Virus record (IMG/VR): IMGVR_UViG_3300037755_000635
Coordinates: 1 to 32,554 of that record
Reading direction: 5' to 3' (one strand)
Length of the DNA stretch: 32,554 nucleotides
Source of the DNA: a virus
Lineage: Duplodnaviria; Caudoviricetes
Shown here: piece after piece, positions 3,308 to 32,554 of the stretch
Layout: each line of letters starts with the position of its first letter
Numbering within the stretch: the first letter of the stretch is position 1
The notes under the pieces: model-generated
Databases searched by the model: none
What the model saw: only the letters and a program-made list of their open reading frames with translations
What the model was told of the DNA's origin: nothing
Translations under genes and position numbers: made by a program

Positions 3308-6159
3308 GCTTGGGCGATCTCCACGAGGAATTGGCCATTGGGCTTGGGGGTGATGAGAAAGCGGCGATTGGCTTGGGCGGTGCGGCTATTTGTCGCAGCG
3401 TCACTGCGGCGTTCTGTCGCAGGCACCGGGATCGCGCTTGGTTCGGCAGGTTCTTCGACCCGCGGGATGACGATCGCATCGGTCGCGGGTTGCGTCGCCG
3501 GCCGCGTGGCTTGCACGGCCATCCCGGGCGTGGCGCGAAGGATTTCCTCGAACAGCTTGCGGGCATGGCGCGGCACGGCGGTGAGATTGCGCTCCGATGC
3601 GCGGCGCATCGCGGCCTCGGCCACGGCTGGATCGAGGAGCATTTCGCGCAAGGCCGTTTGGGCGTTCGTGTGAACGATGTCGCGCAGGCGCGTCACTCCC
3701 GCACTGGCCGCCAAGCCCGCAATGCCGCCCTCCAGGCTGCCGAAATATCCGCCGGCGCCCGCCCCGGCGGCGTGCACGATCAGGTCGATGAAGCTCTGGT
3801 TTTTCTCCACGGGGATGATCTTGGCCGCGCTGGCTTCTTTTGTGCGGCGCAACGCGGCCTCGATGTCGCGCAGGGTCTTGACCGCGCGCTTGCCGAGGAC
3901 GGTTTCGGTCAGTTCGGGGCGCAGGTTGAGCGCGGCGGCGAGCTTGTCGGGAGAGATGATTTGATCGGTCGCGTCGGTCACGCGGCGCATGAGATCGTCG
4001 GCATAGGCGCGCTTCAAGCCGCGCAGGGCGTCCTTGCCGCCAGGCGTGCCGATGACTTGGCGGAAGAGGGCCTTGGCCGTGCCGACGGGATCAGGCTCGC
4101 GGAGGAGCTTTTGCATGGCACCCTCGGGCGTGACCCCGGCGAGCCGTCCGAGCGGCGAGTCACGAAGGGCCTCGGTCGCGGCCTTGCGCTCGACGACGTC
4201 GATGAAGCGATTGTAGACCCCGCCGCCCATTTCCTTGAGGAGGGGTTCGTATTGCTGGACGTATTGGCGTGCTTTGAACGCAGCCGGGGGCATTTCCGCC
4301 GCGATGTATTCCATGACGAATTGACGCATGTCCGGGGAGGGATCGGCGCGGAGGAGTTGCGCGATGGAGTCGCGGCCTTCAGGGCCTTTCTTCACGAAGG
4401 TCTTGAGCGTCGCGCCGGGTGAAACGAGGTCGCCTCCACGGGAGTCGGTGCCGGTGACGCGGCGCATTTCCTTCGGGATGTCGAAGATGTCGACGCGCTC
4501 CAGGGTTTTCGCGATGGCGGCCTCGTGCGCGGTGCGAATTCGCGGGTCTTCGAAGCGGACGCCCTTTTTCAAATAGTCCGTGACCACATCGTACAAGCCG
4601 CCGTAGATGCGCGCACTGCGTGCGTCAGGGCTGCTGCCGTAGCGCGCGTTGTCGCGGAGTTCGCGGAGAACCGGGCGGAGTTCTTGAATCTCGACGATGC
4701 TTTCTTTCTCGCCGAATTTGCGCAGCGTTTGGGCAATCTCCGGCGGGAGGTAGTCGAGCGGGTCTTTGATCTTGGCCGGGTGATAGGCTTTGGGTTGTTT
4801 GCGCACCCAGTTGATGAGTTGGCGTTTTAGGGGCTGCGTCGGGACGTCGGCGGCTTGGCCGAATTCACGGAATTGATTCCAGAGAATTTTCTCGTCGTTT
4901 TTCACCCGCGTGACTGAAGCGTCGATCAGATCGGCGGCCTTGCGCGTTGCCTCGTCCTGGGTGTGAACGCCCTTGAGCTGGAGGAGACCTTGTTCGGCCG
5001 CGGCGTCCGCCTCCGCAACGGTGCGCTCGGCCAGGGTACGGCCGGATTCGGGGAGACCTTTGCCGCCAAGTTCGTCCATGGCGGTGCGCGCCGCGGCGAT
5101 GTTCTCGGCCTCGCGCGCGGCGAGGGATTCACGGAGTAGCGGGTCGGTTTTGGCGGCCTCGGCCTGGGTGGAGCGCAGGCGCGGTTCGAGTTCGGCGGTC
5201 GTGGGGCGTAGGCCGGGGACGTCGGGGGCGGTGGCCGCGACCGGTTGGCCTCCCGTACGTTCAAGCAATCTCTCCGCAGCCTGGCGCTCCGCCCCGGATT
5301 TGGTCACGGACGGAATGCGCGCGACGGCGCGTTGGGTCGCGGGGACGGCGCGCGCGGCCAACTCAGGCACCATCGCCCCGGCGCCACCCGCGACCAGTTG
5401 CCATGCCGGAGAGTCGGGCGCGACCTCCTCGGCGACGCGGGTCGGGATTGCAGCGGCCATGGAGGGGATGACGGCCGTGGGACCGCCGATCGCGCCGGCC
5501 GCGCCAAATTCGCCCACCCGGCGGGCGAGCTTCTCCTCCGGGGTGAGTTCTTCCTCGGCCTTGCCGAACACGTCGGGAGCGTAGGACTCGACCAACGCGC
5601 GGGTTTGCTCGGCGCTGGGTGGGGCGATGTTGGGGACTTCGAAGCCCAGGGCTTTGCTGACCTCGGCGCGGGCTTGTTGCTCTGCGGTACGGGCTTCGGC
5701 CGCGCTGCCCGACCCGAGGAGGAGATCATTGATGCCGCCGGCCACGGCATTGGGGAGATCGACCGCGAGCATTTGCGGGAGAGTGACCGCGGTGTTGAAC
5801 GCACCCTGGCGGGCTTCTTGTGGGATGCCGCCGATGAGAGTGCCCGCCATCGGGTCGCCGGGCGTGGGCTTGAGTGCGCCGGGGATTTGGCCGATGACGT
5901 TTGCAGTCTCGCGCGCGGTGTCGACCCAGTTCGACGGCGTGAGGAATTGATCGACGAATTCTCCATAGGCGCGCAGGATGCGCTCCGGCGCCCCGGCGAG
6001 GCGCTGCACGATCGTGGGCTTCTGGGCTTGGTAGACGCTCTCCAGACTCAGCCCAGCGTCGTCTTCCAGCGAAGGAGCAGAGGCAGGAGACGTCGGAGGA
6101 GAAGGCGCTGGCGATTTGGTCGCATAGGCTTCTTCGAGCGACAGTCCTTGATCGGCCAT
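3304..6159 (-). CDS. Large internal virion / DNA ejection protein
   Basis: 951 aa, Ala-rich and helical with hydrophobic Gly-rich patches; third of three such genes after the nozzle and GNAT genes, the position of P22 gp16 / T7 gp16. Confidence 0.65.
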   Translation of the reverse strand: MADQGLSLEEAYATKSPAPSPPTSPASAPSLEDDAGLSLESVYQAQKPTIVQRLAGAPERILRAYGEFVDQFLTPSNWVDTARETANVIGQIPGALKPTPGDPMAGTLIGGIPQEARQGAFNTAVTLPQMLAVDLPNAVAGGINDLLLGSGSAAEARTAEQQARAEVSKALGFEVPNIAPPSAEQTRALVESYAPDVFGKAEEELTPEEKLARRVGEFGAAGAIGGPTAVIPSMAAAIPTRVAEEVAPDSPAWQLVAGGAGAMVPELAARAVPATQRAVARIPSVTKSGAERQAAERLLERTGGQPVAATAPDVPGLRPTTAELEPRLRSTQAEAAKTDPLLRESLAAREAENIAAARTAMDELGGKGLPESGRTLAERTVAEADAAAEQGLLQLKGVHTQDEATRKAADLIDASVTRVKNDEKILWNQFREFGQAADVPTQPLKRQLINWVRKQPKAYHPAKIKDPLDYLPPEIAQTLRKFGEKESIVEIQELRPVLRELRDNARYGSSPDARSARIYGGLYDVVTDYLKKGVRFEDPRIRTAHEAAIAKTLERVDIFDIPKEMRRVTGTDSRGGDLVSPGATLKTFVKKGPEGRDSIAQLLRADPSPDMRQFVMEYIAAEMPPAAFKARQYVQQYEPLLKEMGGGVYNRFIDVVERKAATEALRDSPLGRLAGVTPEGAMQKLLREPDPVGTAKALFRQVIGTPGGKDALRGLKRAYADDLMRRVTDATDQIISPDKLAAALNLRPELTETVLGKRAVKTLRDIEAALRRTKEASAAKIIPVEKNQSFIDLIVHAAGAGAGGYFGSLEGGIAGLAASAGVTRLRDIVHTNAQTALREMLLDPAVAEAAMRRASERNLTAVPRHARKLFEEILRATPGMAVQATRPATQPATDAIVIPRVEEPAEPSAIPVPATERRSDAATNSRTAQANRRFLITPKPNGQFLVEIAQA

Positions 6160-14994: not shown

Positions 14995-16050
14995 TCAGAC
15001 GCCCGTTGCCGGGCCGTTGACGGTGAACGATGCGCCCGTGATGCCGGTGAAATGCGCGCCGGAAATGGGCTTCGAGCAAACCATGTTGAGCACGACGATC
15101 AGGACGCCGACCGAGGCGATCTGACCGAGCGGGATGGTGGACTCGAACCCGGAGAAGACGAACGGCGCGTACTCGTTGAGATACATGGCGAGGTAGCGGG
15201 AGTTGATCGCGTACATCTCGCCGCGCGGGCAGAACGGATCGGGGAAGATCGGCGTGTCGAGCACGCGCACGGCGCGGAAGCCTGCGTTGACGGAGTCGTC
15301 CTTGCCGTATTTGAGCCGTGGGCCGGTCTGATAGAGTTCGTAGTTCATGAAGTCCGACATGAGCGTCGCCCAGTCGGCCGGGTTCATGACCGCGTAGTCG
15401 GGGGACTCGCCGCCGGAGGCTGTCATGACCTTGGTGAGCGCGACCGCCATGCCCTGGCGGTTCGAAATCGAGCCGGCCGAGGCGTAGAGCTGGCCCTGCC
15501 ACCAGGAGTTGCCCGTGCGCGTGATCCCGCCGTAGGTCGTGGCGTTCGTGCCGTCGTCGTAGGCTTGGTAAAGGGAGTCGATCCGGTCGGGCGTGGCGTA
15601 GTTGTTCGCGTAGATCGACGTCGCGAGGGCTTGTTTGATGACGACCGCGGCGTCGGAGGTTACGGCCCGGAGCTTCGGGATGATGACTTCCGAGGACTGG
15701 ACGAGGGCCTCCATGCCGAAGAAGCCGATCGGGACGAGGCCGAGCTTGAGGTTGAACTGGGCATTTTGCAGCGCCGCGTTCTCGGAGGGCATATTGAAGT
15801 TGCCGACGTAGTTCGACCAGGAGAATTGGTTGAAGTTGGTCGATTGCACCGGGAAAGTGATTTGCGAAAGGCCGCCGCGCGCGCGCTGCGCGTTGGAAAG
15901 AAGCAGCGAGAACAGCGGGTGGGATTGATAGAGCTGCACGAAGATCGACGGGATCACCGCGCGCCGCGTGATCGCCGCGAGCTGGTTGCCGGTTAGGCCG
16001 TTCGGAACGATACCGCCGCTGATCGGTGCGTTGGTGGTAAGAGCGGGCAT
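14995..16050 (-). CDS. Major capsid protein (HK97 fold inferred)
   Basis: 351 aa after the scaffold gene; motifs NQLAAITRRAVIP, TTYGGITR...WW, MNPADWATL, PIFPDPFCPRGEMYAINSRYL; GGAG RBS. Confidence 0.85.
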   Translation of the reverse strand: MPALTTNAPISGGIVPNGLTGNQLAAITRRAVIPSIFVQLYQSHPLFSLLLSNAQRARGGLSQITFPVQSTNFNQFSWSNYVGNFNMPSENAALQNAQFNLKLGLVPIGFFGMEALVQSSEVIIPKLRAVTSDAAVVIKQALATSIYANNYATPDRIDSLYQAYDDGTNATTYGGITRTGNSWWQGQLYASAGSISNRQGMAVALTKVMTASGGESPDYAVMNPADWATLMSDFMNYELYQTGPRLKYGKDDSVNAGFRAVRVLDTPIFPDPFCPRGEMYAINSRYLAMYLNEYAPFVFSGFESTIPLGQIASVGVLIVVLNMVCSKPISGAHFTGITGASFTVNGPATGV

Positions 16051-20063: not shown

Positions 20064-22052
20064 TTAGGCCAAGCCGCGGTCGCGCAGCCACTTCGGCGCA
20101 TAGTTCTCTTCGCGCTGGACTTCGTCAAGCTCCTCGGCGCGCTTGAAGTGCCCCGTGACGAGTTTCCCGATGAAGGATTTCATCCCGGGCTCGGCGTCCT
20201 CGTCGTAGAACTGCCCGGATTGAATCGCGGCGTAGGTCGCGCCCTGGGCGACTAGGGAGGGCCTCAGCATGTCGATCCAGGTGCGATTGGCAAGCGCCGC
20301 GGCCATGACGCGGTCGTCGTGCGCGCCGGCAGGAGCGCCCAGACCGCCGGAGTCGTTGTCTTGGACGACGGCGAGGAGTTCTTCGGTGAAGGGCTTGGAG
20401 TTGATGATGAGTTCGTCTTTGTTCCGGGTGTCGCGGAGCTGGTTGAGGATCGCCCATTTGAGATCGCGCGTGGTGTTGAATTGGGTCGTGTTGGACCCCG
20501 ACATGACCGAGTCGTATTTGCGGTAGAGGAACCAGCGCGCATTGGCGAGGAAGTCGGACCAGTCCTGCTCGCGGCGCTTGTTGCCTTCGTCGTCGAGGTA
20601 GCGCATTTGGAGTTGGTTGCGCAGGGATTTGAATTCCGACATGACGGCGAGGCCGACGCCGCCGGAGATTTCGATGTTGATGTGGCAGTTGCGATAGGCG
20701 CCCGCGAGATAGGCGAGCACCCAAGCGACCTGGCGCGTGTCGTGCATGTTCGCGGCGTACTCGGCGGTTTGCACGAGGCAGTCCGCGTAGCCGCGCCACA
20801 CGGAGATCACCGCGTTGTCGCCTTGGCCGTCGCGGCCCCAAGCCGGGTCGACCCCGATCGCGTAGACGCCGAGGGGCTCGGGGTGCTCCCAGACGCGGAG
20901 TTCGACGAGGGTTTTGTCGCGCAGGACGGACTCCATGCGCGATTCGAGGAATTGATTGGAGAGCAGGAAGCGATAGCCCTCGTAGAGCACGCCCCGGCGC
21001 GTGGTGCCGTCGGGGAGCGTGGTGAGTTGATTGGAGATGCGTTCGAGGTCTTTGGCGAGCGTGCGTGCGTGGAAAAAGGAATAGCCGGAAAGAACGAAGG
21101 CTTCGCCGTCGTACCAGGGCTGGTTTTGTTCGAGGTCGTCGTCGGTGGAGGATTCGTCGGATTGCCGCCAGCGATACCAGGCGAGTTGCTCTTGGGTGAT
21201 TTGCACGCCATGGCGCTGGAGCACGAGTTTCATTTTCTCGCGTTCTTCCGGGGACGGGGGCTGGGAGCCGTAGATGTGGAAGAGGCGCGGTTCGGGCGCG
21301 GGGCCGGTGCGGCGGAGCGTGTTGAGGTCTTTGGCCCACCAGCCGATGAAGGCGGCGCGCTTGGTGACGGTGTCGCGGAGATGTTCTTCGTAGATGGTCT
21401 TCCAGTGGTTGTGGCCCTTGGCGGTGGACTCGTAGATGTAAAGCCGCAGGGGGTTGGTGTCGGAGAGGGTTTCGCGAAAGGATTGCAGACCTTTCGGAGA
21501 GCCGTAGTTGGCGGTTTCCGTGGAGTGCATGAAGGAGTAGCCGGAGCCCTCGCCGAGGGTTTCGTTTTTCTTCTTGCCCGCGACCAGGAAGTCGAGGGTC
21601 GAGCCGTTGGTAAAGTGGATAAAGTCTTTGTTGTCCTTGCCTTTTTTGATCCCAAACGAGGAGCCGAAGAAGCTGCGCGGGAACGAGGCGATGTAGTTTT
21701 TGAGGATGATGCGAAATTTCGAACGGTTCGCGTCGGAGTCGGTGACGAGCGCCCCCCGGGTGCCGGGGAACATGGCGAGCCAGAACACGTCGATCGCGAG
21801 GGAGATCGTGGTGACGCCGCATTGGCGGGATTTGAGAAAGCAGAAGGAGCGCTGACCGGATTCTAGCCCCGCCGCGAGTTCTTCCAAGTACATGCGCTGG
21901 GAGCGCCAGAGGTCGAAGAACGAGCCGCGGGAATCCCGCTCGACGAGTTCCTTGGTGTCGATGCGGAGTTCGGAGACGAAGGCTTCGAAGAGTTCGATCC
22001 AGCGCTTGCCGGCGAAAGGGGAGTTTTGCGGGACGATGGCGTTGGTAGACAT
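20064..22052 (-). CDS. terL: Terminase large subunit
   Basis: Start ATG 22052 (TGATG coupling), 662 aa; Walker A-like LKSRQCGVTT, Walker B-like FMHSTE, coupling motif YESTAKG, RNase H-like nuclease motifs YAIGVDPA and HDDRVMA. Confidence 0.92.
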   Translation of the reverse strand: MSTNAIVPQNSPFAGKRWIELFEAFVSELRIDTKELVERDSRGSFFDLWRSQRMYLEELAAGLESGQRSFCFLKSRQCGVTTISLAIDVFWLAMFPGTRGALVTDSDANRSKFRIILKNYIASFPRSFFGSSFGIKKGKDNKDFIHFTNGSTLDFLVAGKKKNETLGEGSGYSFMHSTETANYGSPKGLQSFRETLSDTNPLRLYIYESTAKGHNHWKTIYEEHLRDTVTKRAAFIGWWAKDLNTLRRTGPAPEPRLFHIYGSQPPSPEEREKMKLVLQRHGVQITQEQLAWYRWRQSDESSTDDDLEQNQPWYDGEAFVLSGYSFFHARTLAKDLERISNQLTTLPDGTTRRGVLYEGYRFLLSNQFLESRMESVLRDKTLVELRVWEHPEPLGVYAIGVDPAWGRDGQGDNAVISVWRGYADCLVQTAEYAANMHDTRQVAWVLAYLAGAYRNCHINIEISGGVGLAVMSEFKSLRNQLQMRYLDDEGNKRREQDWSDFLANARWFLYRKYDSVMSGSNTTQFNTTRDLKWAILNQLRDTRNKDELIINSKPFTEELLAVVQDNDSGGLGAPAGAHDDRVMAAALANRTWIDMLRPSLVAQGATYAAIQSGQFYDEDAEPGMKSFIGKLVTGHFKRAEELDEVQREENYAPKWLRDRGLA

Positions 22053-22408
22053 CAAGCGTCCATCGACTGCCACGCGCCGCAGGAATCGTCGTCCTTGACC
22101 TGCGGCCACATCGCGAGCGCGTGCACCCCGGCGGTTTGATCTTCACCGTAGAAGCGCGAGAGGTAGTGGGCTTGGGGCGGGTTGGCGCGACAGCGGCGCA
22201 GCTTGGCAAGGGAGAGGTCTTGGCCGTAGGCGCAGGTGGCGCAGATGATTTTGACCGGGGCGGGCGCGGCTGCGGCGACGGCGGGCTGGGGATCGGAACT
22301 AGGCCCCGCGGCCACGAGCCCCGGATTGGCGGGAGCTTGAGCTGGGGGTTTGTCCGCCGGCCGGGAGAATGTCCGGGGGTCGGTGTGCTTGGTGGGCTTG
22401 CGGCTCAC
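22052..22408 (-). CDS. Cys-rich hypothetical phage protein
   Basis: 118 aa, GTG start overlapping the upstream stop; CATC...CRANPP...WPQVKDDDSCGAW metal-binding-like motif. Confidence 0.75.
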   Translation of the reverse strand: MSRKPTKHTDPRTFSRPADKPPAQAPANPGLVAAGPSSDPQPAVAAAAPAPVKIICATCAYGQDLSLAKLRRCRANPPQAHYLSRFYGEDQTAGVHALAMWPQVKDDDSCGAWQSMDA

Positions 22409-23537: not shown

Positions 23538-23898
23538 TGGAAACCTCCTTCGGTGGAACCGCGGCGAGAGTGTAGCCGACGCCGTGCGTGGTGATAATGA
23601 CAAGGCCGAGCGGCGCGATTTTGCGCCGCAGGGACGAGATGCGCACGCGCACGGTCCAGAGCGGGTATTCGGGCTCGTAGCGCGTGGAATAGATCACGCC
23701 GATGATGGCGTCGGAGGAGACGGCGCGACTGAAGCGTTTGTTGAGGGCGGTGAAAATGTCGGCTTCAAGCTGGGTGAGTTTTATCGGGGCCGGGAAGCCG
23801 CCGCGGGTCACGATGTTGTCGAGGCAAAGGACGCCGTGATAGGCGGCGGGGAAGGGTTGGCCGCAGCAGGTGCAGTGGGTTTGGGTGGGCGTTACCAT
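23491..23898 (-). CDS. Stand-alone OmpR/PhoB-type winged-helix DNA-binding protein (CtrA-like C-terminal domain)
   Basis: LTQLEADIFTAL...IYSTRYEPE...VRVRISSLRRKI...IITTHGVGYTL; no receiver domain; N-terminal CTCC. Confidence 0.85.
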   Translation of the reverse strand: MVTPTQTHCTCCGQPFPAAYHGVLCLDNIVTRGGFPAPIKLTQLEADIFTALNKRFSRAVSSDAIIGVIYSTRYEPEYPLWTVRVRISSLRRKIAPLGLVIITTHGVGYTLAAVPPKEVSNASPASQLPLAHHSV

Positions 23899-24578
23899 GC
23901 GGAATTCCCCGTGCCGCTGCCTGCGTTGAAGACTTGCACGAACGCCTGCATGCGGCGAGGGTCAGCAGTGAAGTCGTAGGCTTTGATGACCTCGATTGCT
24001 TCGCGGAACTTGGCGATCTTGCCGTCGAGCTGGGTGATGGCGGAGTCGAGCCCGGCCATGGTGCCGCGCACGATCGCTTCGAGCTGGTTGGGCTCGGGCG
24101 GGTCGGTGCGCTTTGCCTTGGCGTTGGCCGTGCCGCGGCGCTTGAACCGGCCGATCAGGCGTTCGAGTTGCGCGCGTTGGGAGGTGAGTTTGGCGCGGGA
24201 CTTTTCGAAGTCGCGAATGGAGTTCGCCGCGAGGGATTCCATCTCGCGGGCGAAGGGGATCGTGAGCGGGTCGACGCCGGATTTGGCACAGTTGTCCAGC
24301 GTGTGGGCGAGGAGCGCGGAGAGGACTTCGAGGAGTTGCGCGTGGGTGTTGTCGGGGGCGGATTCGGAGCAATCGCCCGTGGAGTCGTAGCGCGCCCGGC
24401 GGTTGGGATCGGTGAGAATGTCGTGGGCGAGCTTGGTCATGGAAAATTTGGCCTGGGAGCCGCCCGCGTCGGGGTGGTCGGATTTGGCGCGGCGCCGGAA
24501 CGCGCCGCGGATGTCCGCGTGGGATGCGTCGCACGGGACGCCGAGATGGGTGTAGAGATCGGGCGCGGCGGATGTCAT
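23892..24578 (-). CDS. DnaJ (J-domain) protein
   Basis: DLYTHLGV...IRGAFRRRAKSDHPDAGG...LTDPNRRARYDSTG with intact HPD motif, followed by a coiled-coil region. Confidence 0.9.
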   Translation of the reverse strand: MTSAAPDLYTHLGVPCDASHADIRGAFRRRAKSDHPDAGGSQAKFSMTKLAHDILTDPNRRARYDSTGDCSESAPDNTHAQLLEVLSALLAHTLDNCAKSGVDPLTIPFAREMESLAANSIRDFEKSRAKLTSQRAQLERLIGRFKRRGTANAKAKRTDPPEPNQLEAIVRGTMAGLDSAITQLDGKIAKFREAIEVIKAYDFTADPRRMQAFVQVFNAGSGTGNSAW

Positions 24579-26213: not shown

Positions 26214-26423
26214 TCATTCTTCTCTCGTCGCCATTGTTCTCTGCACTCGATTATTCGCATCTTCCACGAACGCCGCGTGCTCGACCGCTTTCCTGATCCA
26301 ATCGCTCGCCGTCAGCCCCGCCTTGACCGCAAGCAGCTCGATCCGGGATTTGTCATTTTCCGACAATCTCACCGTCACATACGCAACTTTCCGCCGGTCT
26401 TTGCTGATTTTCTTGCGTGTCAT
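26214..26423 (-). CDS. Ribbon-helix-helix (Arc/CopG/MobC-like) DNA-binding protein
   Basis: YVTVRLSENDKSRIELLAVKAGLTASDWIRKAV is a typical RHH pattern. Confidence 0.8.
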   Translation of the reverse strand: MTRKKISKDRRKVAYVTVRLSENDKSRIELLAVKAGLTASDWIRKAVEHAAFVEDANNRVQRTMATREE

Positions 26424-26857: not shown

Positions 26858-27298
26858 TTAGTCAGATAATGCAACGCTTATCTTCGATACGCAGCGTTTC
26901 GAATCATCGAGGGCGGCAGGAACTAGCGGCACTCCCGCCATTCCCGGATCGCTCATCTTCCCAGCTGACTTTGCCGCAGTCATTGCCCTACGCCGCGCGT
27001 TGAGCCGATGAGCATGTGCGGAATGCGCCGCGATCCGTGCGGCGTGCTTGGCATAAATGGCCGCAAGTTTAGGCTCAAGCGAATGCCAAGCCGTCATGAC
27101 TCGTTTGTTGATGTCGCACCATTGACGGCCATGCACGCTGGCCAGGCGGGATAATTGAGCATTGGAAGCCGGCAGAGGCGCGGCTTTTCCCCGCCAAAAG
27201 GCTTCCGACAGGGTGAGAAGCGCCCCAATCTCAAGCGTGGTGAGGCGATGCTCCGCAGAGGCATCTAGAATGGGACTGGCGGGAAAGTCGGCTTTCAT
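26858..27298 (-). CDS. DUF1376/YdaU-like protein (putative replication initiator domain)
   Basis: HRLTTLEIGALLTLSEAFW...PLPASNAQLSRLA...W matches the DUF1376 pattern; start ATG 27298. Confidence 0.7.
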   Translation of the reverse strand: MKADFPASPILDASAEHRLTTLEIGALLTLSEAFWRGKAAPLPASNAQLSRLASVHGRQWCDINKRVMTAWHSLEPKLAAIYAKHAARIAAHSAHAHRLNARRRAMTAAKSAGKMSDPGMAGVPLVPAALDDSKRCVSKISVALSD

Positions 27299-27304
27299 GC
27301 CGCA

Positions 27305-27333
27305 AGCATAGCACATGCTATAGTGTGACGGAA
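27305..27333 (-). promoter_or_regulatory. Leftward extended -10 promoter (leaderless) with overlapping palindrome
   Basis: TTCCGT-N17-TATGCT with TG extension, 6 nt before ATG 27298; ATAGCA-CA-TGCTAT palindrome at 27308-27321. Confidence 0.5.
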
Positions 27334-27386
27334 TGCCGCATGTTGTTAATACAAAATAACGCTTGCGTTGTGCGTGGGTTATTGAA

Positions 27387-27415
27387 TTGGCAATGGTTAT
27401 GGATCACTGTAGCGT
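27387..27415 (+). promoter_or_regulatory. Rightward sigma70-like promoter of the early operon
   Basis: TTGGCA-N17-TAGCGT in the AT-rich divergence region; predicted start ~27421. Confidence 0.5.
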
Positions 27416-27463
27416 TGAGCGTTGCGGTTGTGATTCGCGGCGCACAACCCTATGGAGAACAAA

Positions 27464-27727
27464 ATGGCTACTCTCTACCGTATGAAGTCTTGCATCGTAA
27501 AAACACGCAACGGGCACGAAGTGACGCGTGAGCGTGTGATCGCCGAAGAAAGTGAATTGGGCCACGCTTATGAGACCGTGCGTATACGCATGACGGCGGC
27601 ACATCCAGGATGTTACGTGTTTTGTGACGTATCGGAAGGCACACCGTGCACCGAAACGGGCGAGCGAGTGCGTAAAGGGAAAGCTTGCGCTTCCCCGCGC
27701 GTTGCACGACGTACAATGGCGCTCTGA
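27464..27727 (+). CDS. Hypothetical early protein
   Basis: ATG 27464 after GGAGA RBS; 87 aa. Confidence 0.65.
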   Translation: MATLYRMKSCIVKTRNGHEVTRERVIAEESELGHAYETVRIRMTAAHPGCYVFCDVSEGTPCTETGERVRKGKACASPRVARRTMAL

Positions 27728-27728
27728 A

Positions 27729-27782
27729 CGCAGCAAGCGCGCCTCTCGCAATGGGGCGCGCCGTGCTGCGCTTGGATGCGGC
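27729..27782 (+). repeat. Intergenic two-state RNA element, copy 1
   Basis: CGCAGCA-A-GCGCGCCTC-loop-GGGGCGCGC-CG-TGCTGCG-CTTGGA-TGCGGC. Confidence 0.75.
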
Positions 27783-27797
27783 CACAAGGAATGCACC

Positions 27798-27962
27798 ATG
27801 GATCAAAAACGTAAGCCTACGATCTACGAAGCGTTGCGCGACAAGCTGGGCCGCGAGCCTACGCGCGATGAACTCCGCGCCGATGTACGGCGGATATTGG
27901 AAGACGGCACGCGCGAGCGTGCGGAGAAAGGGAAATTGTCTTGGCAACGTAAAAGATCATAG
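27798..27962 (+). CDS. Small conserved phage protein
   Basis: 54 aa MDQKRKPTIYEALRDKLGREPTRDELRADVRRIL...; AAGGA RBS. Confidence 0.75.
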   Translation: MDQKRKPTIYEALRDKLGREPTRDELRADVRRILEDGTRERAEKGKLSWQRKRS

Positions 27963-28012
27963 CGCAATCGGGCATTGGCGACAGTGCCCGACTCGCTGCG
28001 ATCGAATGCGGC
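27960..28012 (+). repeat. Intergenic two-state RNA element, copy 2
   Basis: TAGCG-CAA-TCGGGCATTG-GCGA-CAGTGCCCGA-CT-CGCTGCG-ATCGAA-TGCGGC. Confidence 0.75.
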
Positions 28013-28036
28013 ACAACGAAGCGAAAGGTAAAGGCA

Positions 28037-28123
28037 ATGTTCGAATTCATCTGCTTGATCGTCATGCTCTGGGGCTTGGCGATGATCGTCAAACTGTGGT
28101 GGCAGGGCGAGAAGTTTTGGTGA
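28037..28123 (+). CDS. Small single-pass membrane peptide
   Basis: MFEFICLIVMLWGLAMIVKLWWQGEKFW (28 aa); AAAGG upstream; fills the slot between two hairpins. Confidence 0.6.
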   Translation: MFEFICLIVMLWGLAMIVKLWWQGEKFW

Positions 28124-28164
28124 CGTGATCCAGGCCGCGAGGCTTGGTGAAGGGAGGACGATCA

Positions 28165-28641
28165 ATGCAATTCATCTATGACGACGGCGGCCGCGCTACG
28201 GCCGGATTCAAAGGTGACGCGGGCGACTGCGTTACACGCGCCGTGGCGATTGCTGCGCAGCTTCCCTATGCGGAGGTCTACGCAGCGTTGTCGAAAGGCT
28301 GCAAGACGCAGCGATTGACGAAGCGTTCGCGTGCCAAATCGTCGGCGCGTGATGGCGTGAACACGCGGCGGAAATGGTTCCGCGACTACATGGCGTCGAT
28401 CGGTTTGGTTTGGACCCCGACCATGCTGATCGGCCAAGGCTGCAAGGTGCATCTGCACGACGACGAGTTGCCCAATGGGCGCCTGATCGTCGCCGTCAGC
28501 AAGCACTATACGGCCGTCATCGACGGCGTGATCCGTGACACGCACGATCCGCAGCGCAACGACGTCTGGGTCGATGCCGACGGCGTGCAGCGCATCATGC
28601 GCCGTTGCGTGTACGGCTATTGGCGACAGGTGACGCAATGA
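28165..28641 (+). CDS. Conserved phage protein with possible Cys-His-Asp (papain-like) triad
   Basis: GDCVTRAVAIA...HYTAVIDGVIRDTHD...VYGYW; GGGAGG RBS preceded by a 7-bp GCGA-loop hairpin (28130-28147). Confidence 0.75.
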   Translation: MQFIYDDGGRATAGFKGDAGDCVTRAVAIAAQLPYAEVYAALSKGCKTQRLTKRSRAKSSARDGVNTRRKWFRDYMASIGLVWTPTMLIGQGCKVHLHDDELPNGRLIVAVSKHYTAVIDGVIRDTHDPQRNDVWVDADGVQRIMRRCVYGYWRQVTQ

Positions 28642-28844
28642 TGAACTATCAGCAAGCAATGCGCTGGATCAACGCGGCCGACACGCCGCCATTGCTCAAG
28701 GCCGCGGCGAGAATCAAGCAAGCCGCGTTGCTGCGGGAGTATGCCGGCGTGATCGCCATGCAGGATGAGCCGGTCAGGCACGCGGCGCTCGTGGTGGTGT
28801 TTGTGGATGCGTGCAGCAACGTTGCGATTGCGCATGCGGCGTGA
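28638..28844 (+). CDS. Hypothetical protein
   Basis: 68 aa; ATGA coupling to the upstream gene. Confidence 0.6.
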   Translation: MMNYQQAMRWINAADTPPLLKAAARIKQAALLREYAGVIAMQDEPVRHAALVVVFVDACSNVAIAHAA

Positions 28845-28874
28845 CGTGCGTGACGCGGCGTTGAATGGAGAATC

Positions 28875-28902
28875 CCCCGAGGGAGCGCAAGCGACCGAGG
28901 GG
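28875..28902 (+). other. Hairpin with two tandem GA mismatches and GCAA tetraloop
   Basis: CCCC-GA-GG-GA-GC-GCAA-GC-GA-CC-GA-GGGG. Confidence 0.65.
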
Positions 28903-28944
28903 CGGTGAAGGGCGATTGTCGCCTGACGAGGGAGAACTGGTGTT

Positions 28945-29139
28945 ATGGCAGATAGAATAGTCTCAAGCAGCGAAGCGCACGACATGTCCGAGGGATGGAT
29001 GAAGGACAATCCGGAGCTGGCGGGAAAGGCATTATTGCAATTCTTCCGCGAGCATCCGCCCGAAGAATGGAATTTGACGATCCGACGCGCGTTCATGCCG
29101 GGCATGTTTCTGACGCTTAGCGCGGTGCGTAAAAAGTAA
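28945..29139 (+). CDS. Hypothetical protein
   Basis: 64 aa; GGGAGAA RBS. Confidence 0.65.
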   Translation: MADRIVSSSEAHDMSEGWMKDNPELAGKALLQFFREHPPEEWNLTIRRAFMPGMFLTLSAVRKK

Positions 29140-29208
29140 CAGGCCGAAACGCGCGTTAGGAGAATTTTAACGCGCGTCTGCGAGTGTGGCTCGCACTGAC
29201 GAGGCTGT
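29139..29208 (+). ncRNA. Hammerhead ribozyme, type II
   Basis: ACAGGCC-GAAA-CGCGCGTTA(loop)TAACGCGCG-TC^-TGCGAG(TGTGG)CTCGCA-CTGACGA-GGCTGT. All core nucleotides are present; stem III 10 bp, stem I 6 bp, stem II closed by the ends; predicted cut after C29178. Confidence 0.93.
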
Positions 29209-29235
29209 CGGAGTGCAATAGGGAGAATGAAGACA

Positions 29236-29568
29236 ATGTCTAATGATTTTGTACCAGCTAAAAAAGGCGACGTCGTGGCAATTCGCGTAAGGGCCGCGAA
29301 TCACGATGCAGCGCGCCCCGAATGGTGGCTTCTTGCGTGGGTGGAACGTTCTTCGCGCGCAGGAAAAGTGCGCGATGTGCGTCTTGCCGGGCAATACGGC
29401 ACATTGCCTGCCTCAGCCATCGGGCAGGTTTATGCTATTGGAAATTCAGAGAAGCAGCGACTTGCGCGCAAGCTTGCGCAAGGGATGAAATATCCCGGCG
29501 TGACGTTCGACACGGATACGGAGCTCAAAGACGCGATTATGAATGCGGACGGCGGCGCGGCGGATTGA
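29236..29568 (+). CDS. Hypothetical protein downstream of the ribozyme
   Basis: 110 aa from ATG 29236 (best spacing to GGGAG; alternative start 29227). Confidence 0.7.
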   Translation: MSNDFVPAKKGDVVAIRVRAANHDAARPEWWLLAWVERSSRAGKVRDVRLAGQYGTLPASAIGQVYAIGNSEKQRLARKLAQGMKYPGVTFDTDTELKDAIMNADGGAAD

Positions 29569-29571
29569 CCA

Positions 29572-29622
29572 CAGCTAGCGCGCACCGCGAACGATGCGCG
29601 TCATGCTGCGATCATGTGCAGC
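29572..29622 (+). repeat. Intergenic two-state RNA element, copy 3
   Basis: CAGC-TA-GCGCGCACCG-CGAA-CGATGCGCGT-CAT-GCTGCG-ATCATG-TGCAGC, then TTGAAGGGAGAA. Confidence 0.75.
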
Positions 29623-29644
29623 GATTGAAGGGAGAACTATTCCA

Positions 29645-29950
29645 ATGAGTGAACCACTGACAGACGTGATATTTCGCGTTTGGTGCAAGGATGGCGACGT
29701 AATCGCGTTGTTTCCGGGTATCGCTGGGGATTACAGCGCGGGAACGTGCGACAGCTTTCAACACATTGGCCAGCATGGCGCGGCCAGTCTCAATTTAATG
29801 CGCGCACTCACGCGCCCGGCCTTGCCGCGTGAATTCGCGGATTTGAAGCGCGAACTGGAATCGGCGCCTTACAAATATCGCTTGCGCATCATCAAGCGCA
29901 CAACGCGGCGGCACTTCAAAGAGCGTCAAGCGCAATTACAGCGTGCCTAG
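29645..29950 (+). CDS. Conserved phage early protein
   Basis: 101 aa; VIFRVW...VIALFP...SFQHIGQH...TRPA...LKRELES pattern; GAAGGGAGAA RBS. Confidence 0.75.
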   Translation: MSEPLTDVIFRVWCKDGDVIALFPGIAGDYSAGTCDSFQHIGQHGAASLNLMRALTRPALPREFADLKRELESAPYKYRLRIIKRTTRRHFKERQAQLQRA

Positions 29951-30000
29951 CGCATCGGGCGTGGTCCGCCGCGCCCCTTGCGCTGTGCATGTCGCGCGGC
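29948..30000 (+). repeat. Intergenic two-state RNA element, copy 4
   Basis: TAGCGCA-TC-GGGCGTGG-TCCG-CCGCGCCC-CT-TGCGCTGTGC-ATGTC-GCGCGGC, then TTGAAGGGAGAA. Confidence 0.75.
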
Positions 30001-30021
30001 AATTGAAGGGAGAATAACGCA

Positions 30022-30372
30022 ATGCCACAACTGAACAACCCCACGCGCGCCCATTTGCGCGTGGTCGCCAACAACGCCGCGATCGCCAAGCCGCGCGACT
30101 ATCGCGGCGAACCGGACTTCACCCGGGAGTATTTTATTCGCGCGCTCGAAGGCCGCGCGGATATGGACCTCTACAGCGGCCGGACGCTGATTAGCGCGTT
30201 CGTGCTGGGTGAAACGGACTATGCCCGGCATGAAGCGTTGCGCAGTGCGTATGCGCTGGCTGTGTGGGAGGATGCCGACGGCGCCGTGTTCCATTGCACG
30301 ATGGATCGCGCGGCGTATGGCGCGTGGGTGAGCAAGGCGTGTGACGCGCTTGACGACGAAGAAGACGAGTAG
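30022..30372 (+). CDS. Hypothetical protein
   Basis: 116 aa with acidic tail; GAAGGGAGAA RBS. Confidence 0.7.
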   Translation: MPQLNNPTRAHLRVVANNAAIAKPRDYRGEPDFTREYFIRALEGRADMDLYSGRTLISAFVLGETDYARHEALRSAYALAVWEDADGAVFHCTMDRAAYGAWVSKACDALDDEEDE

Positions 30373-30373
30373 G

Positions 30374-30430
30374 ACCATTGCGCTAGGGCGCATCGTTCGC
30401 GGTGCGCCCGTCGCAGCGGTTTTGAGCTGC
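30374..30430 (+). repeat. Intergenic two-state RNA element, copy 5 (covaried)
   Basis: ACCATTGCG-CTA-GGGCGCATCG-TTCG-CGGTGCGCCC-GT-CGCAGC-GGTTTTGA-GCTGC. Confidence 0.75.
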
Positions 30431-30454
30431 ATGTGGAGAAAGGGAGAACTGACT

Positions 30455-31018
30455 ATGACGACGAAGACGACGAAAGCGCCGCGTGAGGAAATCACGGAGC
30501 GCGATTGCGACGAGCTGGTGCGGCGTGAGGTGATGTGCTGCGTGAGTGGGATTGTGAGCGTGCTTGCCGGCGGATATGGATTTGTTACATCGCAAGCCAA
30601 ACGTCACGGCTTGGTCGACGGCGGCAATGAACTGGCGGCGTTGTGTGAACAAGCCATGGAACTCGCCGCGCCGGTCGACGACTGGGAAGAAGCGGCGATT
30701 CAGGCTGGGTGGCGCGATAGCGGCACGGTTGAATTTTCTCATGCCGAAACCGGCCGCGTGGAAATCGGCGACAACTGGCGCGAGCTGTGCGAATCCGAAG
30801 GCATCGAACCCTATCAGCGCGAAGTCTTCGAGCACTGGGCCGTTTCGTTCTGGCTCGCCGATGCCCTCGAAGCGGAAGGCGAAAAGGTGGACCGCGATTT
30901 CCAGGGCCTCAATGTCTGGGCGCGCACCACGACCGGCTAGGGGATCGCGTCGGACGGTGTGATTCGCCGGGTGATCGAAGCGGCGCGGACGCGCGTCGCG
31001 GCATTCGCGGCGAACTGA
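30455..31018 (+). CDS. Conserved acidic phage protein with an in-frame TAG at 30938-30940 (nonsense allele or readthrough)
   Basis: ATG 30455; EVFEHWAVSFWLA...VWARTTTG*GIASDGVIRRVI...; the frame continues 25 codons to TGA 31016-31018, just before the next intergenic element. Confidence 0.7.
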
Positions 31019-31022
31019 CGAA

Positions 31023-31087
31023 CGAGCATAGCCTAAAGACGCATCCCGCACGTGCGTGGTGCGTCTCCGGCTGCGCTCGGACGTGGT
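31023..31087 (+). repeat. Intergenic two-state RNA element, copy 6
   Basis: CGAGCATAGCC-TAA-AGACGCATC-...-GGTGCGTCT-CC-GGCTGCG-CTCGGA-CGTGGT, then AAAGGGAGAA. Confidence 0.7.
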
Positions 31088-31110
31088 ATAGCAAAGGGAG
31101 AACAAAGCAA

Positions 31111-31440
31111 ATGGGAACGATCACGCGCCATACGCACCGGGACGTCATCAAAGACGTTCGGGACCGTTGGCAATATCAATATCGGATGTGGGGCTCTGAC
31201 GAAGCGGTGCAAGTCACGAATGGCCCGCGCAAGATCGGTACCATCCGCCGCGCGTTGAGGGCACTCGACCTTGAAACTTGTTCGGCCGAAGACGTCGATG
31301 CCGCGATCGGGCGCCCCGGGTGGGTCGCGCTTACATGCGACGTCTGCAACAAGGATCAAGACGAGATTTTGCACATCGAATCCGAAAGCGAGCGCGCGGT
31401 CGATGTGTGTTTCGAGTGCGCTCGCACGGCAATGAAATAG
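31111..31440 (+). CDS. Hypothetical Zn-finger protein
   Basis: 109 aa; CDVC...CFEC; AAAGGGAGAA RBS. Confidence 0.75.
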   Translation: MGTITRHTHRDVIKDVRDRWQYQYRMWGSDEAVQVTNGPRKIGTIRRALRALDLETCSAEDVDAAIGRPGWVALTCDVCNKDQDEILHIESESERAVDVCFECARTAMK

Positions 31441-31457
31441 CAAAGGGAGAACAGCAA

Positions 31458-31571
31458 ATGTTTCATTCGAAATTCGTCAAATTCATGCGCGCGGGCGTGC
31501 TCGATATCGTCGCATGGGCGTGCGTGGCGTTCATGTTCGGCGCCTGGCTTACGCAACAGGTGGTGCAATGA
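31458..31571 (+). CDS. Small single-pass membrane peptide
   Basis: MFHSKFVKFMRAGVLDIVAWACVAFMFGAWLTQQVVQ (37 aa); strong RBS; ATGA coupling downstream. Confidence 0.65.
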   Translation: MFHSKFVKFMRAGVLDIVAWACVAFMFGAWLTQQVVQ

Positions 31572-31966
31572 CCGGCGCGCAATTGTCGGTCGCGCGGGCG
31601 AAGGATCGCGCGGCGATGCTTGACCTGCTCGTTCAGCTCGCCATGCAGCATGGGCCGTATTGGGTATGCACCAGCCGCCAAGTCGGCCGGCGCATCGTCG
31701 TGACGTTCCACGGCCCGCGCGGCCTGACCATGAGCGTCAATCTCGACGGAGACAGCCCACAGGCGCGACGCGGCGTGTTTGTGCTTTCATGGCATGGGGT
31801 CAAAGAACCGTATCGGCTGCGGCAATCGTTCGCCCACGATGTGAACCCGTATCACAACCACAAAGCCACGGATGTTTGTGGCTCGTTCGACGGGGTGTTG
31901 CGTATCCTGCCGGCGCGGCTGCAATCGGCGATCGATGGGAGCGCGTTCCAATGCCCGAATCCGTGA
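31568..31966 (+). CDS. Hypothetical protein
   Basis: 132 aa from MTGAQLSV; ...SWH...VNPYHNHKAT motif. Confidence 0.7.
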   Translation: MTGAQLSVARAKDRAAMLDLLVQLAMQHGPYWVCTSRQVGRRIVVTFHGPRGLTMSVNLDGDSPQARRGVFVLSWHGVKEPYRLRQSFAHDVNPYHNHKATDVCGSFDGVLRILPARLQSAIDGSAFQCPNP

Positions 31967-32169
31967 AAATGACCAAAGCCTTGCAAAAGGCTTTGGATTG
32001 GCTCGCGGCGCACAACGGCGAAGGCCATTTCGGCGGCGCGGGCAACACGCTCATGGCGGCGGGAGAAATCGCGCCGTTCATGCGTTCGACGTGGAATCGT
32101 TTGGAAGTCTTGGGGAAGGTGAAATTCTCTCACGGCCGCAAGCGTATTCAGCTCGTGCGCCCCGAATGA
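31951..32169 (+). CDS. Small hypothetical protein (possibly winged-helix-like)
   Basis: 72 aa from MPESVKMTKALQKALDWL; GGGAG RBS. Confidence 0.65.
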   Translation: MPESVKMTKALQKALDWLAAHNGEGHFGGAGNTLMAAGEIAPFMRSTWNRLEVLGKVKFSHGRKRIQLVRPE

Positions 32170-32554
32170 TTCGCGCGGTTATTTTTGCGTGCACGGCGGC
32201 CATCGCTGCCGCGCTGCACCATTCGCGCGTCGTTGCCTTCAACCCGACGGCGCCGGGCGTGGAGCCATTGCCGTTCGCCGACGAACTCGCGCGACAAGGC
32301 GAGGCCACGCGCGTCAAATCGTTGAGCTATGAGGATCATGTTTTCCTCGCGCGCACGATCTTCGGCGAATGCGCCCGCTGCGGCCGCGACGAACAAACCG
32401 CTATTATTTATGTGGTTATTAATAGACTCCGCACCGGGCGATATGGCGCGAACATTGGCGACGTGGTGACATTCTCGCGCGGCCGGACCTTCGCATTCTC
32501 AACCTGGAGCCCGCACAGCGCGTCTAATTTCAACGAGGCCACAGGGAGCCACGT
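32166..32554 (+). CDS. SleB/Hydrolase_2-family cell wall hydrolase, partial (runs off right edge)
   Basis: Manual translation: hydrophobic N-terminus MIRAVIFACTAAIAAAL, then FLARTIFGE...AIIYVVINR...YGANIGDVV...AFSTW, matching the SleB pattern with catalytic Glu and (Q/A)FS.W. Confidence 0.8.
   Translation, partial: MIRAVIFACTAAIAAALHHSRVVAFNPTAPGVEPLPFADELARQGEATRVKSLSYEDHVFLARTIFGECARCGRDEQTAIIYVVINRLRTGRYGANIGDVVTFSRGRTFAFSTWSPHSASNFNEATGSH

Follow-up and report, generated by a model that had tools for sequence, protein, structure and literature searches.

Six repeated RNA elements are present between small genes of an uncultured phage, all of them at the positions given in an earlier note on this DNA. 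They lie in the window, i.e. the whole analysed stretch of 32,554 nucleotides. The repeats are probably sites at which host RNase III nicks the transcript once, just before a pivot G, whereupon the freed strand would refold and cap the next message. On this prediction, the elements are T7-like processing sites supplied with an apparently undescribed refolding cap. The copies, all on the + strand, are as follows:

27726–27782, + strand: copy 1, predicted cut 27764/27765, with a weak short hairpin
27955–28012, + strand: copy 2, predicted cut 27994/27995, upstream TAG within the lower stem
29567–29622, + strand: copy 3, predicted cut 29604/29605, C·A at −11
29943–30000, + strand: copy 4, predicted cut near 29981/29982, upstream TAG within the lower stem
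30373–30430, + strand: copy 5, predicted cut 30412/30413, GCAG pivot with both partners compensated
31024–31087, + strand: copy 6, predicted cut 31069/31070, long upper extension, short hairpin weak

The pivot G (+1) is located at 27765, 27995, 29605, 29982, 30413 and 31070 in copies 1–6, respectively. An energy-based detector, written with the motif already known, gave six matches on the + strand of the window, at 27.7–31.1 kb, none on the − strand and none across the other 27.3 kb, compared to a mean of 0.037 and a maximum of two in 300 shuffles. A helix-pattern descriptor without pivot sequence produced seven matches in 27301–32554 (mean 0.3, maximum 3 in 40 shuffles), corresponding to five elements, one of them counted twice, and one match within a gene. 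The common architecture proposed for the six spacers is therefore borne out. Two further features were recorded in the same region:

28813–28885, + strand: candidate decayed seventh copy (model R1 13.8 bits, E 0.04, plus folds), weak
28130–28147, + strand: single GCGA-tetraloop hairpin ahead of a ribosome-binding site, in a 41-nt gap without the two-state element

The segment 28813–28885 overlaps the end of the ORF 28638–28844, and more hairpins (e.g. 28910–28924) are found between it and the ribosome-binding site at 28929.

Each copy is predicted to form a long hairpin of about 18–21 pairs, or approximately two helical turns (the count for copy 3 is taken from an alternative lower register). 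Its 3′ arm can alternatively form a short hairpin of 5–7 bp upstream of the ribosome-binding site. Past a mismatch at +5, the long hairpin continues beneath the pivot, beyond what was described earlier. The upper stem stands in a fixed register to the pivot, with C-G at −9 and G-C at −8 in 6/6 copies, and with U·G at −11 in all but copy 3; C-G occupies −11 in the 16 copies from outside the window. Throughout the total of 22 copies, G+1, C+2, G+4 and G+6 are invariant and +5 is mostly an unpaired C. Conserved letters are placed in helices, while internal and terminal loops vary freely. Details of the earlier description also hold, including the loops of three copies (GCGA in copy 2, UCCG in copy 4, UUCG in copy 5), the ribosome-binding site AAGGGAGAA common to copies 3–6, and the GCAG pivot of copy 5, matched by changes in both the upstream and the downstream partner. 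Upper-stem sequences diverge with pairing kept and with G-U pairs on the + strand, the window copies being only ~59% alike by column. The statement that elements start at or just after the upstream stop is correct for copies 1–5, in which the lower stem overlaps or adjoins the stop codon, and for copy 6, which starts 5 nt past its stop, it depends on read-through in the preceding gene:

30455–31018, + strand: gene separating copies 5 and 6, its reading frame containing a TAG at 30938–30940

Copy 6 follows a stop only if this TAG is read through to the TGA at 31016–31018. The homologue of this gene in another phage record (L012; 45% identity over 176 aligned positions) runs past the TAG point.

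Folding predictions for intact RNA favour the long form in the six copies (P 0.78–1.0). After a simulated cut, the short form attains P of at least 0.98 in copies 2–5; copies 1 and 6 have a weak short hairpin (P 0.32 and 0.36). The predicted unpaired fraction of the ribosome site after the switch is unchanged or slightly lower in all six copies. Since accessibility of the ribosome-binding site does not rise on switching, a translational switch of the riboswitch type was rejected, and the switch RNA suggested earlier as an alternative is weakened. An attenuator or intrinsic terminator was also rejected, as none of six terminator-like matches is a + strand hairpin at a copy, and no U-tract terminator is present at any of the six.

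Relatives of the element were found in three other phage groups, with compensatory changes in both helices. In the alignment of 22 sequences, 12 of the 17 pairs of the long hairpin change on both sides, and covariation is 0.354, in comparison with 0.139 for shuffled and at most 0.115 for slid sequences; 12 of the 22 make up one closely similar sub-family. A short helix of at least 5 bp occurs in 22/22, as opposed to 5.8% with shuffled tails, in a set entirely picked by a detector that requires this helix. Within it, position +3 changes on both sides in three copies from two phages, and +5 in one. This helix was counted by script because the MAFFT alignment misplaces the downstream partner. In addition, a copy at L105 1124–1196, found by the model outside its building set, carries a G at +2 that its partner matches.

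A scan based only on the lower stem disclosed a strong upper hairpin at 14 of 119 loci, and all 14, close kin of one another, also have the short helix, a ribosome-binding site and ATG; a 5-bp helix was counted by eye in about 21 of the other 105 loci. Three segments of L207 (6240, 6840 and 8105) keep the two-helix plan, judged by eye, with unrelated pivot letters. In L047, near-identical copies flank different genes, and copies therefore do spread within a genome. L047 was the one useful locus among 62 in the first viral scan. The GCAG scan of 52 loci revealed only G002 again and one doubtful match (L249), and a third scan, of 119 loci, mostly the L089/L141 group again, with L370 added. Model R1 has no match in G001, G003, G004 and G005 or in L001–L012, nor does it match the T7 sites. 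Of two complete capsid relatives, one lacks a match to it, which counts against the proposal. In a scan of bacterial genomes (120 loci from 19 of 64 parts, with flanks for 80) no convincing copy was found; the eight weak detector matches all lack the characteristic lower stem, as judged by eye. Cultured phages gave only two short gene-level DNA matches, and capsid relatives are below 40% identity.

In a search called for by the earlier note, with E up to 10, none of the six copies matches an Rfam family. Throughout the window, no family of Rfam 15 reaches its gathering score, and at E up to 10 there is nothing besides a hammerhead (see below) and a chance Mahella-1 match inside a gene. HDV, twister, pistol and hairpin ribozymes were rejected, as the six copies do not fit their plans in by-eye comparison. 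A literature survey by title and start of the abstract, with most subscription and older papers outside its coverage, returned no description of such an element.

To predict the cut, we used a pair matrix of counts from 85 RNase III duplexes found in E. coli in vivo (PMC6212723 Table S4). The best-scoring of nine registers falls immediately before the pivot G in 20/22 copies (5/6 in the window and 15/16 others), part of this signal coming from loop placement, since loop positions were left unscored. On T7 controls, with four of the five cut positions assumed, the best register coincides with the cut position in 5/5 sites. Mean scores are −16.7 for window copies, −17.3 for other copies and −16.6 for T7 sites. 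For copy 4, the matrix favours a register 2 nt upstream of 29981/29982, and an internal loop is located at −4/−5. A sequence-only matrix derived from T7 3′ strands also peaks before the pivot G for the six window copies (−1.1, next best −9.0), and it chooses no single register across all 22.

Half-site boxes were read against PMC1540722. The +3 pair is A-U or U-A and +4 is G in 22/22 copies, G is opposite +9 in 20/22, and G is at −11 in 21/22. Position −3 is unpaired in 21/22 copies (5/6 in the window alone), compared to 4/5 T7 sites. In the upper proximal box, A-U or U-A at −5 is found in 0/6 window copies and 2/22 overall, against 5/5 T7 sites. G-C or C-G at −5 strongly blocks binding by RNase III from E. 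coli (PMC1540722), and the upper half-site thus breaks the E. coli binding rule in 20/22 copies. Because of this, we file the copies as working like T7 single-nick sites and not as members of that class. A single set of boxes can suffice for RNase III, and at certain motifs the enzyme can bind but not cut (PMC1540722). C-G forms the +1 pair in 22/22 copies and in 3/5 T7 sites; C-G at this position slows catalysis in a minimal RNase III substrate (PMC1540722). The +2 pair is G-C in 22/22 copies, but in just 6/85 in vivo E. coli sites. In general, the register fits T7 sites as well as the in vivo rules of E. coli, in support of the predicted T7-like cut 3′ of the internal loop. No RNase III domain was detected in five related phage records or among the scanned window proteins (46 against PHROGs, 25 against Pfam), and the host enzyme is therefore the simpler source.

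A further gap in the same region, absent from the earlier note, harbours a likely ribozyme:

29142–29213, + strand: likely type II hammerhead ribozyme (Rfam RF02276, 32.3 bits, E 0.0011)
29146–29149 (GAAA), 29176–29178 (GUC) and 29196–29202 (CUGACGA), + strand: hammerhead core, predicted cut after 29178

The score is below the RF02276 gathering score of 37 bits. The alignment includes the core (CUGANGA, GAAA, NUH) and stems I–III, open at stem II, and by eye loop I could form a pseudoknot with the 3′ tail through four pairs, two of them wobbles. The predicted 3′ product begins with a hairpin of 7 bp, followed by the ribosome-binding site at 29220. The hammerhead thus occupies a gap equivalent to those of the six elements and would leave a like 5′ hairpin, which favours the earlier idea of processing between genes. 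Furthermore, a type II hammerhead at L012 5932–5987 precedes the homologue of gene 30455. A hammerhead search in five relatives gave no match, its controls being silent too.

The elements belong to what is likely an early operon, ‘early’ being deduced from gene size and position:

27464–32552, + strand: about 15 small ORFs in a row with the same orientation, most of them lacking a family, divergent relative to structural/packaging genes on the − strand
27387–27415, + strand: candidate sigma-70-type promoter (hexamers 27387–27392 and 27410–27415, 17-nt spacer), start near 27421
27421–27463, + strand: predicted leader with a 7-bp hairpin at 27426–27449 and, ahead of ATG 27464, the ribosome-binding site GGAG (folds, several starts)

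The candidate promoter has 8/12 consensus letters by eye and is below the threshold of the scanner. The suggestion that the transcript from 27421 begins with half an element was not upheld, as the hairpin at 27426–27449 is the favoured fold.

The copies are seen to share a two-helix anatomy, a fixed spacing and a T7-like box pattern, and each helix shows compensatory changes; from this we infer the following course of events. The long hairpin would form first and dominate the intact RNA, and RNase III would bind chiefly via the lower half-site, while the internal loop and G-C-rich upper half-site would suppress a second cut. The upper stem would stay on the upstream message as a 3′ shield. The downstream partner would displace the lower stem, aiding separation of the nicked pieces and leaving a paired 5′ end; covariation of the short helix in other phages is consistent with this refolding, which the earlier note had predicted. 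A ribosome terminating at the overlapping stop codon may help to open the lower stem, and the hammerhead at 29142–29213 would get the same outcome by self-cleavage.

Overlap with stop codons also suggests a switch gated by translation, in which a ribosome terminating on the upstream stop melts the lower stem in favour of the short hairpin, cutting not being obligatory, and so controls decay or RNase III access (binding only, or cutting solely while the upstream gene is idle). When the RNA is masked through the stop plus 0–10 nt, copies 2–5 are predicted to move mostly to the short hairpin, and binding without cutting, together with the catalytic brake of C-G at +1 (PMC1540722), would suit this explanation. 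It is nevertheless rather unlikely, since copy 6 remains long when masked and copy 1 does not take the short hairpin, the ribosome site gains no accessibility, and the presence of a hammerhead in a corresponding gap argues for cutting. We assign still lower probability to RNase III cutting both arms and removing the upper hairpin, with the short hairpin capping the downstream piece. In the L089/L141 group two positions between the cuts can pair G-C, which is the in vivo double-cut pattern; an unpaired −3 in 5/6 window copies and a −5 that is never A-U there should, however, disfavour a cut in the 5′ arm, and T7 loop sites are cut once according to PMC1540722 and PMC8708148.

Sharing gaps with hammerheads could also mean that the repeat is itself a new class of small self-cleaving ribozyme, active as one fold or a stack of both, or a nuclease-free hybrid cassette swapped with hammerheads, cutting and capping by strand displacement. 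The match to no Rfam family agrees with this, and the invariance of G+1, C+2, G+4 and G+6, with the usually unpaired C at +5, exceeds RNase III rules. Such invariance is nonetheless expected of a strand obliged to pair two ways, conserved letters avoid the loops, the register fits a protein enzyme footprint on both half-sites, and neither a pseudoknot nor a junction that would accommodate the two helices together was seen; both versions are accordingly very doubtful. The near-identical copies beside different genes in L047, and their spread within a genome, would suit an element acting in transcription or at the DNA level (an antitermination signal or a cassette-shuffling repeat) with folds as by-products. 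This is the most improbable explanation, given the low similarity of copies with pairing kept and G-U on the + strand, the lack of a U-tract terminator at any copy, and the two-helix plan of the L207 variants.

The preferred explanation, a single RNase III nick followed by refolding, places the elements beside the T7 early sites (R0.3, R0.5, R1, R1.1, R1.3), which are likewise two-turn hairpins between genes, their internal loop lying immediately 5′ of the cut. Common to both are U·G or C-G at −11 (3/5 and 2/5 T7 sites, respectively), C-G at −9, G-C at −6, often G at +1, and the same best register under the in vivo pair matrix. According to PMC8708148 and PMC1540722, single-strand cutting at T7 sites protects mRNAs. 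Unlike T7 sites, the elements have an upper proximal box rich in G-C, a lower stem that is conserved and mismatched at +5, and a downstream partner predicted to serve for recapturing the freed strand. They also share the operon with a hammerhead, and this phage differs from T7 in having no RNA polymerase match among the scanned proteins and no close cultured relative. Type II hammerheads are clustered in intergenic gaps of phages and prophages, proposed to cut long transcripts into gene-length mRNAs, and cleavage was demonstrated for three clusters (Perreault et al. 2011, PMC3088659). The hammerhead at 29142–29213 resembles these in its full core and three stems, but here it fills one gap, whereas six gaps have a predicted protein-dependent hairpin without hammerhead core. 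Stem-loops of the ompA type at the 5′ terminus stabilise bacterial mRNA, as reportedly described in 1992 by Emory and by Bouvet and Belasco. A paired 5′ end would similarly shield the processed message, although the hairpin here, unlike the ompA type, is hidden in the precursor and would not emerge until the cut is made. Sites for RNase III that separate small early genes are also known in the Bacillus phages SP82 and SPO1, unrelated to T7, which differ from the present phage in belonging to a different host group.

If the proposal is true, gene-by-gene RNase III processing, with T7 as the textbook case, is used in an upgraded form by unrelated uncultured phages, and a single nick would leave a 3′ hairpin on the upstream message and a 5′ hairpin on the downstream one. 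No principle is overturned, both ingredients being already known separately. Cut positions are predicted to the nucleotide, and the compact cut-and-cap cassette would be a useful insulator for synthetic operons. The sites would be interchangeable with hammerheads, giving a concrete purpose to the many hammerheads between phage genes.

The six intergenic copies of the two-state hairpin (27.7–31.1 kb, + strand) represent a real element. The shared architecture of these spacers, proposed in the earlier note, was recovered in all six by an energy-based detector built with prior knowledge of the motif, which gave no hits on the opposite strand or elsewhere in the window and a mean of 0.037 in shuffled sequences (n = 300). 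A helix-pattern descriptor lacking the pivot sequence yielded seven matches in the region compared with 0.3 in 40 shuffles; these correspond to five elements, one of them counted twice, and one match inside a gene. The long hairpin is present as first described and extends further than stated there, continuing below the pivot over a mismatch at +5 (the pivot G being +1) to about 18–21 pairs. Its upper stem has a fixed register, with C-G at −9 and G-C at −8 in all copies, and U·G at −11 and G-C at −6 in five of six each. The Rfam search suggested as a check matched no family among the six copies.

The window covers the entire 32,554-base virus record. Packaging and structural genes are located on the − strand, while about 15 small ORFs, most of them without a family, occupy the + strand from 27464 up to the end of the record. 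Judging from gene size and position, we infer that this run is an early operon. A promoter upstream of 27421, picked by eye in the sequence, is a candidate only. Other features of the window are as follows.

Features of the window outside the six copies
14995–16050, − strand: capsid
20064–22109, − strand: terminase
23892–24578, − strand: DnaJ-domain protein, between packaging genes and the divergent operon
26214–26423, − strand: NikA-like ribbon-helix-helix protein, same interval
26858–27316, − strand: DUF1376 protein (weak match), same interval
28813–28944 region: seventh copy, weak (E 0.04), whose span includes the end of ORF 28638–28844; a bulged hairpin and then a small hairpin follow
29140–29235, gap: type II hammerhead with intact core (32.3 bits, E 0.0011, below the gathering score of 37)
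32166–32552: last ORF, truncated by the end of the record, with weak cell-wall hydrolase and endolysin matches

Gaps of at least 70 nt number eight, six of which hold the element, one the hammerhead, and one a possible decayed copy with plain hairpins. The structures in 28813–28944 are possibly decayed cassettes. A hammerhead-like CUGACGA occurs at 28923, and the matching GAAA is absent. Capsid relatives share 64–66% identity, and because the two complete genomes among them are 60 and 67 kb long, about half of the phage genome may be absent from the window. No close cultured relative was found.

Pattern scans and capsid homology disclosed copies of the element in three other phage groups. L047 (phage record G006) has four copies and L207 two; L207 belongs to G002, one of the complete capsid relatives. 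The rest are in L089, L141 and their kin, which have similar small-gene operons. One of the two complete capsid relatives gave no match to R1, a model of the element. The alignment comprises 22 sequences (6 from the window, 4 from L047, 2 from L207 and 10 from the L089/L141 group), chosen by eye from 47 distinct detector matches by the lower stem of the family; they are not independent, 12 belonging to one sub-family type. In the long hairpin, 12 of 17 pairs vary on both sides, and covariation is 0.354 compared with 0.139 after shuffling, which ignores kinship, and at most 0.115 after sliding. A short helix of at least 5 bp, itself a selection condition, is found in 22/22 sequences versus 5.8% with shuffled tails. 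A less biased test is the scan with the lower stem only, which returned 119 loci. A strong upper hairpin is present in 14, close kin of one another, and all 14 carry the short helix, a ribosome-binding site and ATG; among the remaining 105, a 5-bp helix was counted by eye in about 21.

The suggested co-change of the pivot with both of its partners is borne out by three copies in two phages, in which a GCAG pivot is accompanied by corresponding changes upstream and downstream. Position +5 co-varies with its partner in one copy, and in a copy that came from the model search alone, +2 is G and the downstream partner matches it. When tails are exchanged between copies with different pivot types, most combinations lose the short helix (at least 5 bp in 9 of 114). 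By eye, a similar either-or plan with unrelated letters is seen in six more gaps, three each in G002 and L047.

Other either-or structures in related phages
L207 6240–6300, 6840–6900 and 8105–8165: hairpins with unrelated pivot letters, early operon of G002
L047 248–356, 1228–1336 and 2100–2203: second intergenic repeat family, three overlapping hairpins with either-or pairing

The second L047 family alternates with the studied element and has no Rfam match at the gathering score.

Folding prediction for the six intact copies favours the long form (P 0.78–1.0). After a cut, copies 2–5 are each predicted to form the short hairpin at the extreme 5′ end with P ≥ 0.98; the values fall to 0.32 for copy 1 and 0.36 for copy 6. 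The duplex of the nicked pieces is still favoured by 1.5–15 kcal/mol at standard state; in the cell they would be released by dilution, competition from the short hairpin and perhaps ribosomes. A translational switch and an attenuator are excluded, since switching is not predicted to free the ribosome-binding site and there is no U-tract. Masking the RNA through the stop flips copies 2–5, which leaves some weight to a less probable, translation-gated variant, in which a ribosome terminating at the upstream stop would open the lower stem. The argument that the transcript leader begins with half an element fails, as the leader from 27421, predicted to be structured nonetheless, favours a different hairpin.

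Cleavage by RNase III was assessed against published determinants. According to Pertzev and Nicholson (PMC1540722), the distal box is U-A followed by a stringent U·G, and the proximal box G-C followed by A-U or U-A; G-C or C-G at that second position prevents binding. A single box set can specify the cut, and internal loops restrict cutting to one strand, so that a protective hairpin remains at the 3′ end. The cut in T7 R1.1 lies at nucleotide 5887 (PMC8708148). A cut predicted directly 5′ of the pivot G places U·G at the stringent position in 5/6 window copies and the internal loop as in T7. Cut positions of the other four T7 control sites agree with the same boxes. The predicted placement would also account for the single pivot change that is tolerated, since this falls at +3, the lower-half position required to be A-U or U-A; the pair there is of this type in 22/22, and the position has the strictest such preference in vivo according to Altuvia et al. 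(PMC6212723).

An in vivo pair matrix (18 duplex positions, nine registers) was built from the Table S4 counts of that paper. The best register lies directly 5′ of the pivot G in 5/6 window copies, 15/16 others and 5/5 T7 sites, a peak that is in part structural since the loop falls in unscored positions. Means are −16.7, −17.3 and −16.6, respectively, to which the published thresholds are inapplicable because we used our own pseudocount and omitted three central positions. A sequence-only T7 matrix, which loop placement does not affect in this way, gives its highest score at that register in the six window copies (−1.1 vs −9.0), with no such peak across all 22.

The T7-like processing put forward in the earlier note agrees in predicted register with T7 sites and in vivo counts, and departs from T7 at upper-half −5, which is A-U in 0/6 window copies and 2/22 overall versus 5/5 T7 sites. 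The +1 pair is C-G in 22/22, likewise in 3/5 T7 sites, and is described as a catalytic brake in a minimal substrate (PMC1540722). G-C occupies +2 in 22/22 compared with 6/85 in vivo sites in the Table S4 counts. Since RNase III specificity varies among species (PMC8708148), E. coli rules can serve here only as a guide. Searches of five related phage records recovered no RNase III domain.

Hammerheads occur in the same slot. Homologues of gene 30455 (ORF 30455–31018, between copies 5 and 6) are present at 12 loci, one of which, L012, has a type II hammerhead in place of copy 5 (33 bits, E 0.007), with a second, script-found candidate 320 nt upstream. Another locus, L004, has a different either-or hairpin before this homologue (by eye). 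At L011 ~5865–5935 the corresponding gap is structured and twister-like by eye, without an Rfam match at E up to 1. A strong type II hammerhead (72 bits) lies at L126 432–494 (−), a locus otherwise resembling a chance scan match. Gene 30455 itself carries an in-frame TAG (30938–30940), where the L012 homologue has Q and reads on; the TAG would then stem from a point mutation or an error in sequencing, or else be read through.

Intergenic hammerheads are already known, and so, separately, are RNase III sites that lie between early genes of phages. Literature on a built-in recapture hairpin, or on mixing RNase III sites with hammerheads, was not found in a search run largely on titles and abstracts, which covered older and subscription papers thinly and included the reviews PMC7509114 and PMC3997798. 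In Perreault et al. (PMC3088659), clustered phage hammerheads are proposed to split long transcripts into gene-length mRNAs, with cleavage demonstrated for three clusters. On balance, it is fairly probable that the six copies combine an RNase III nick with a refolding cap. The 3′ product of the window hammerhead is predicted to open with a hairpin of 7 bp that precedes the ribosome-binding site, and both cassettes would thereby leave a like end product, a 5′ hairpin before that site.
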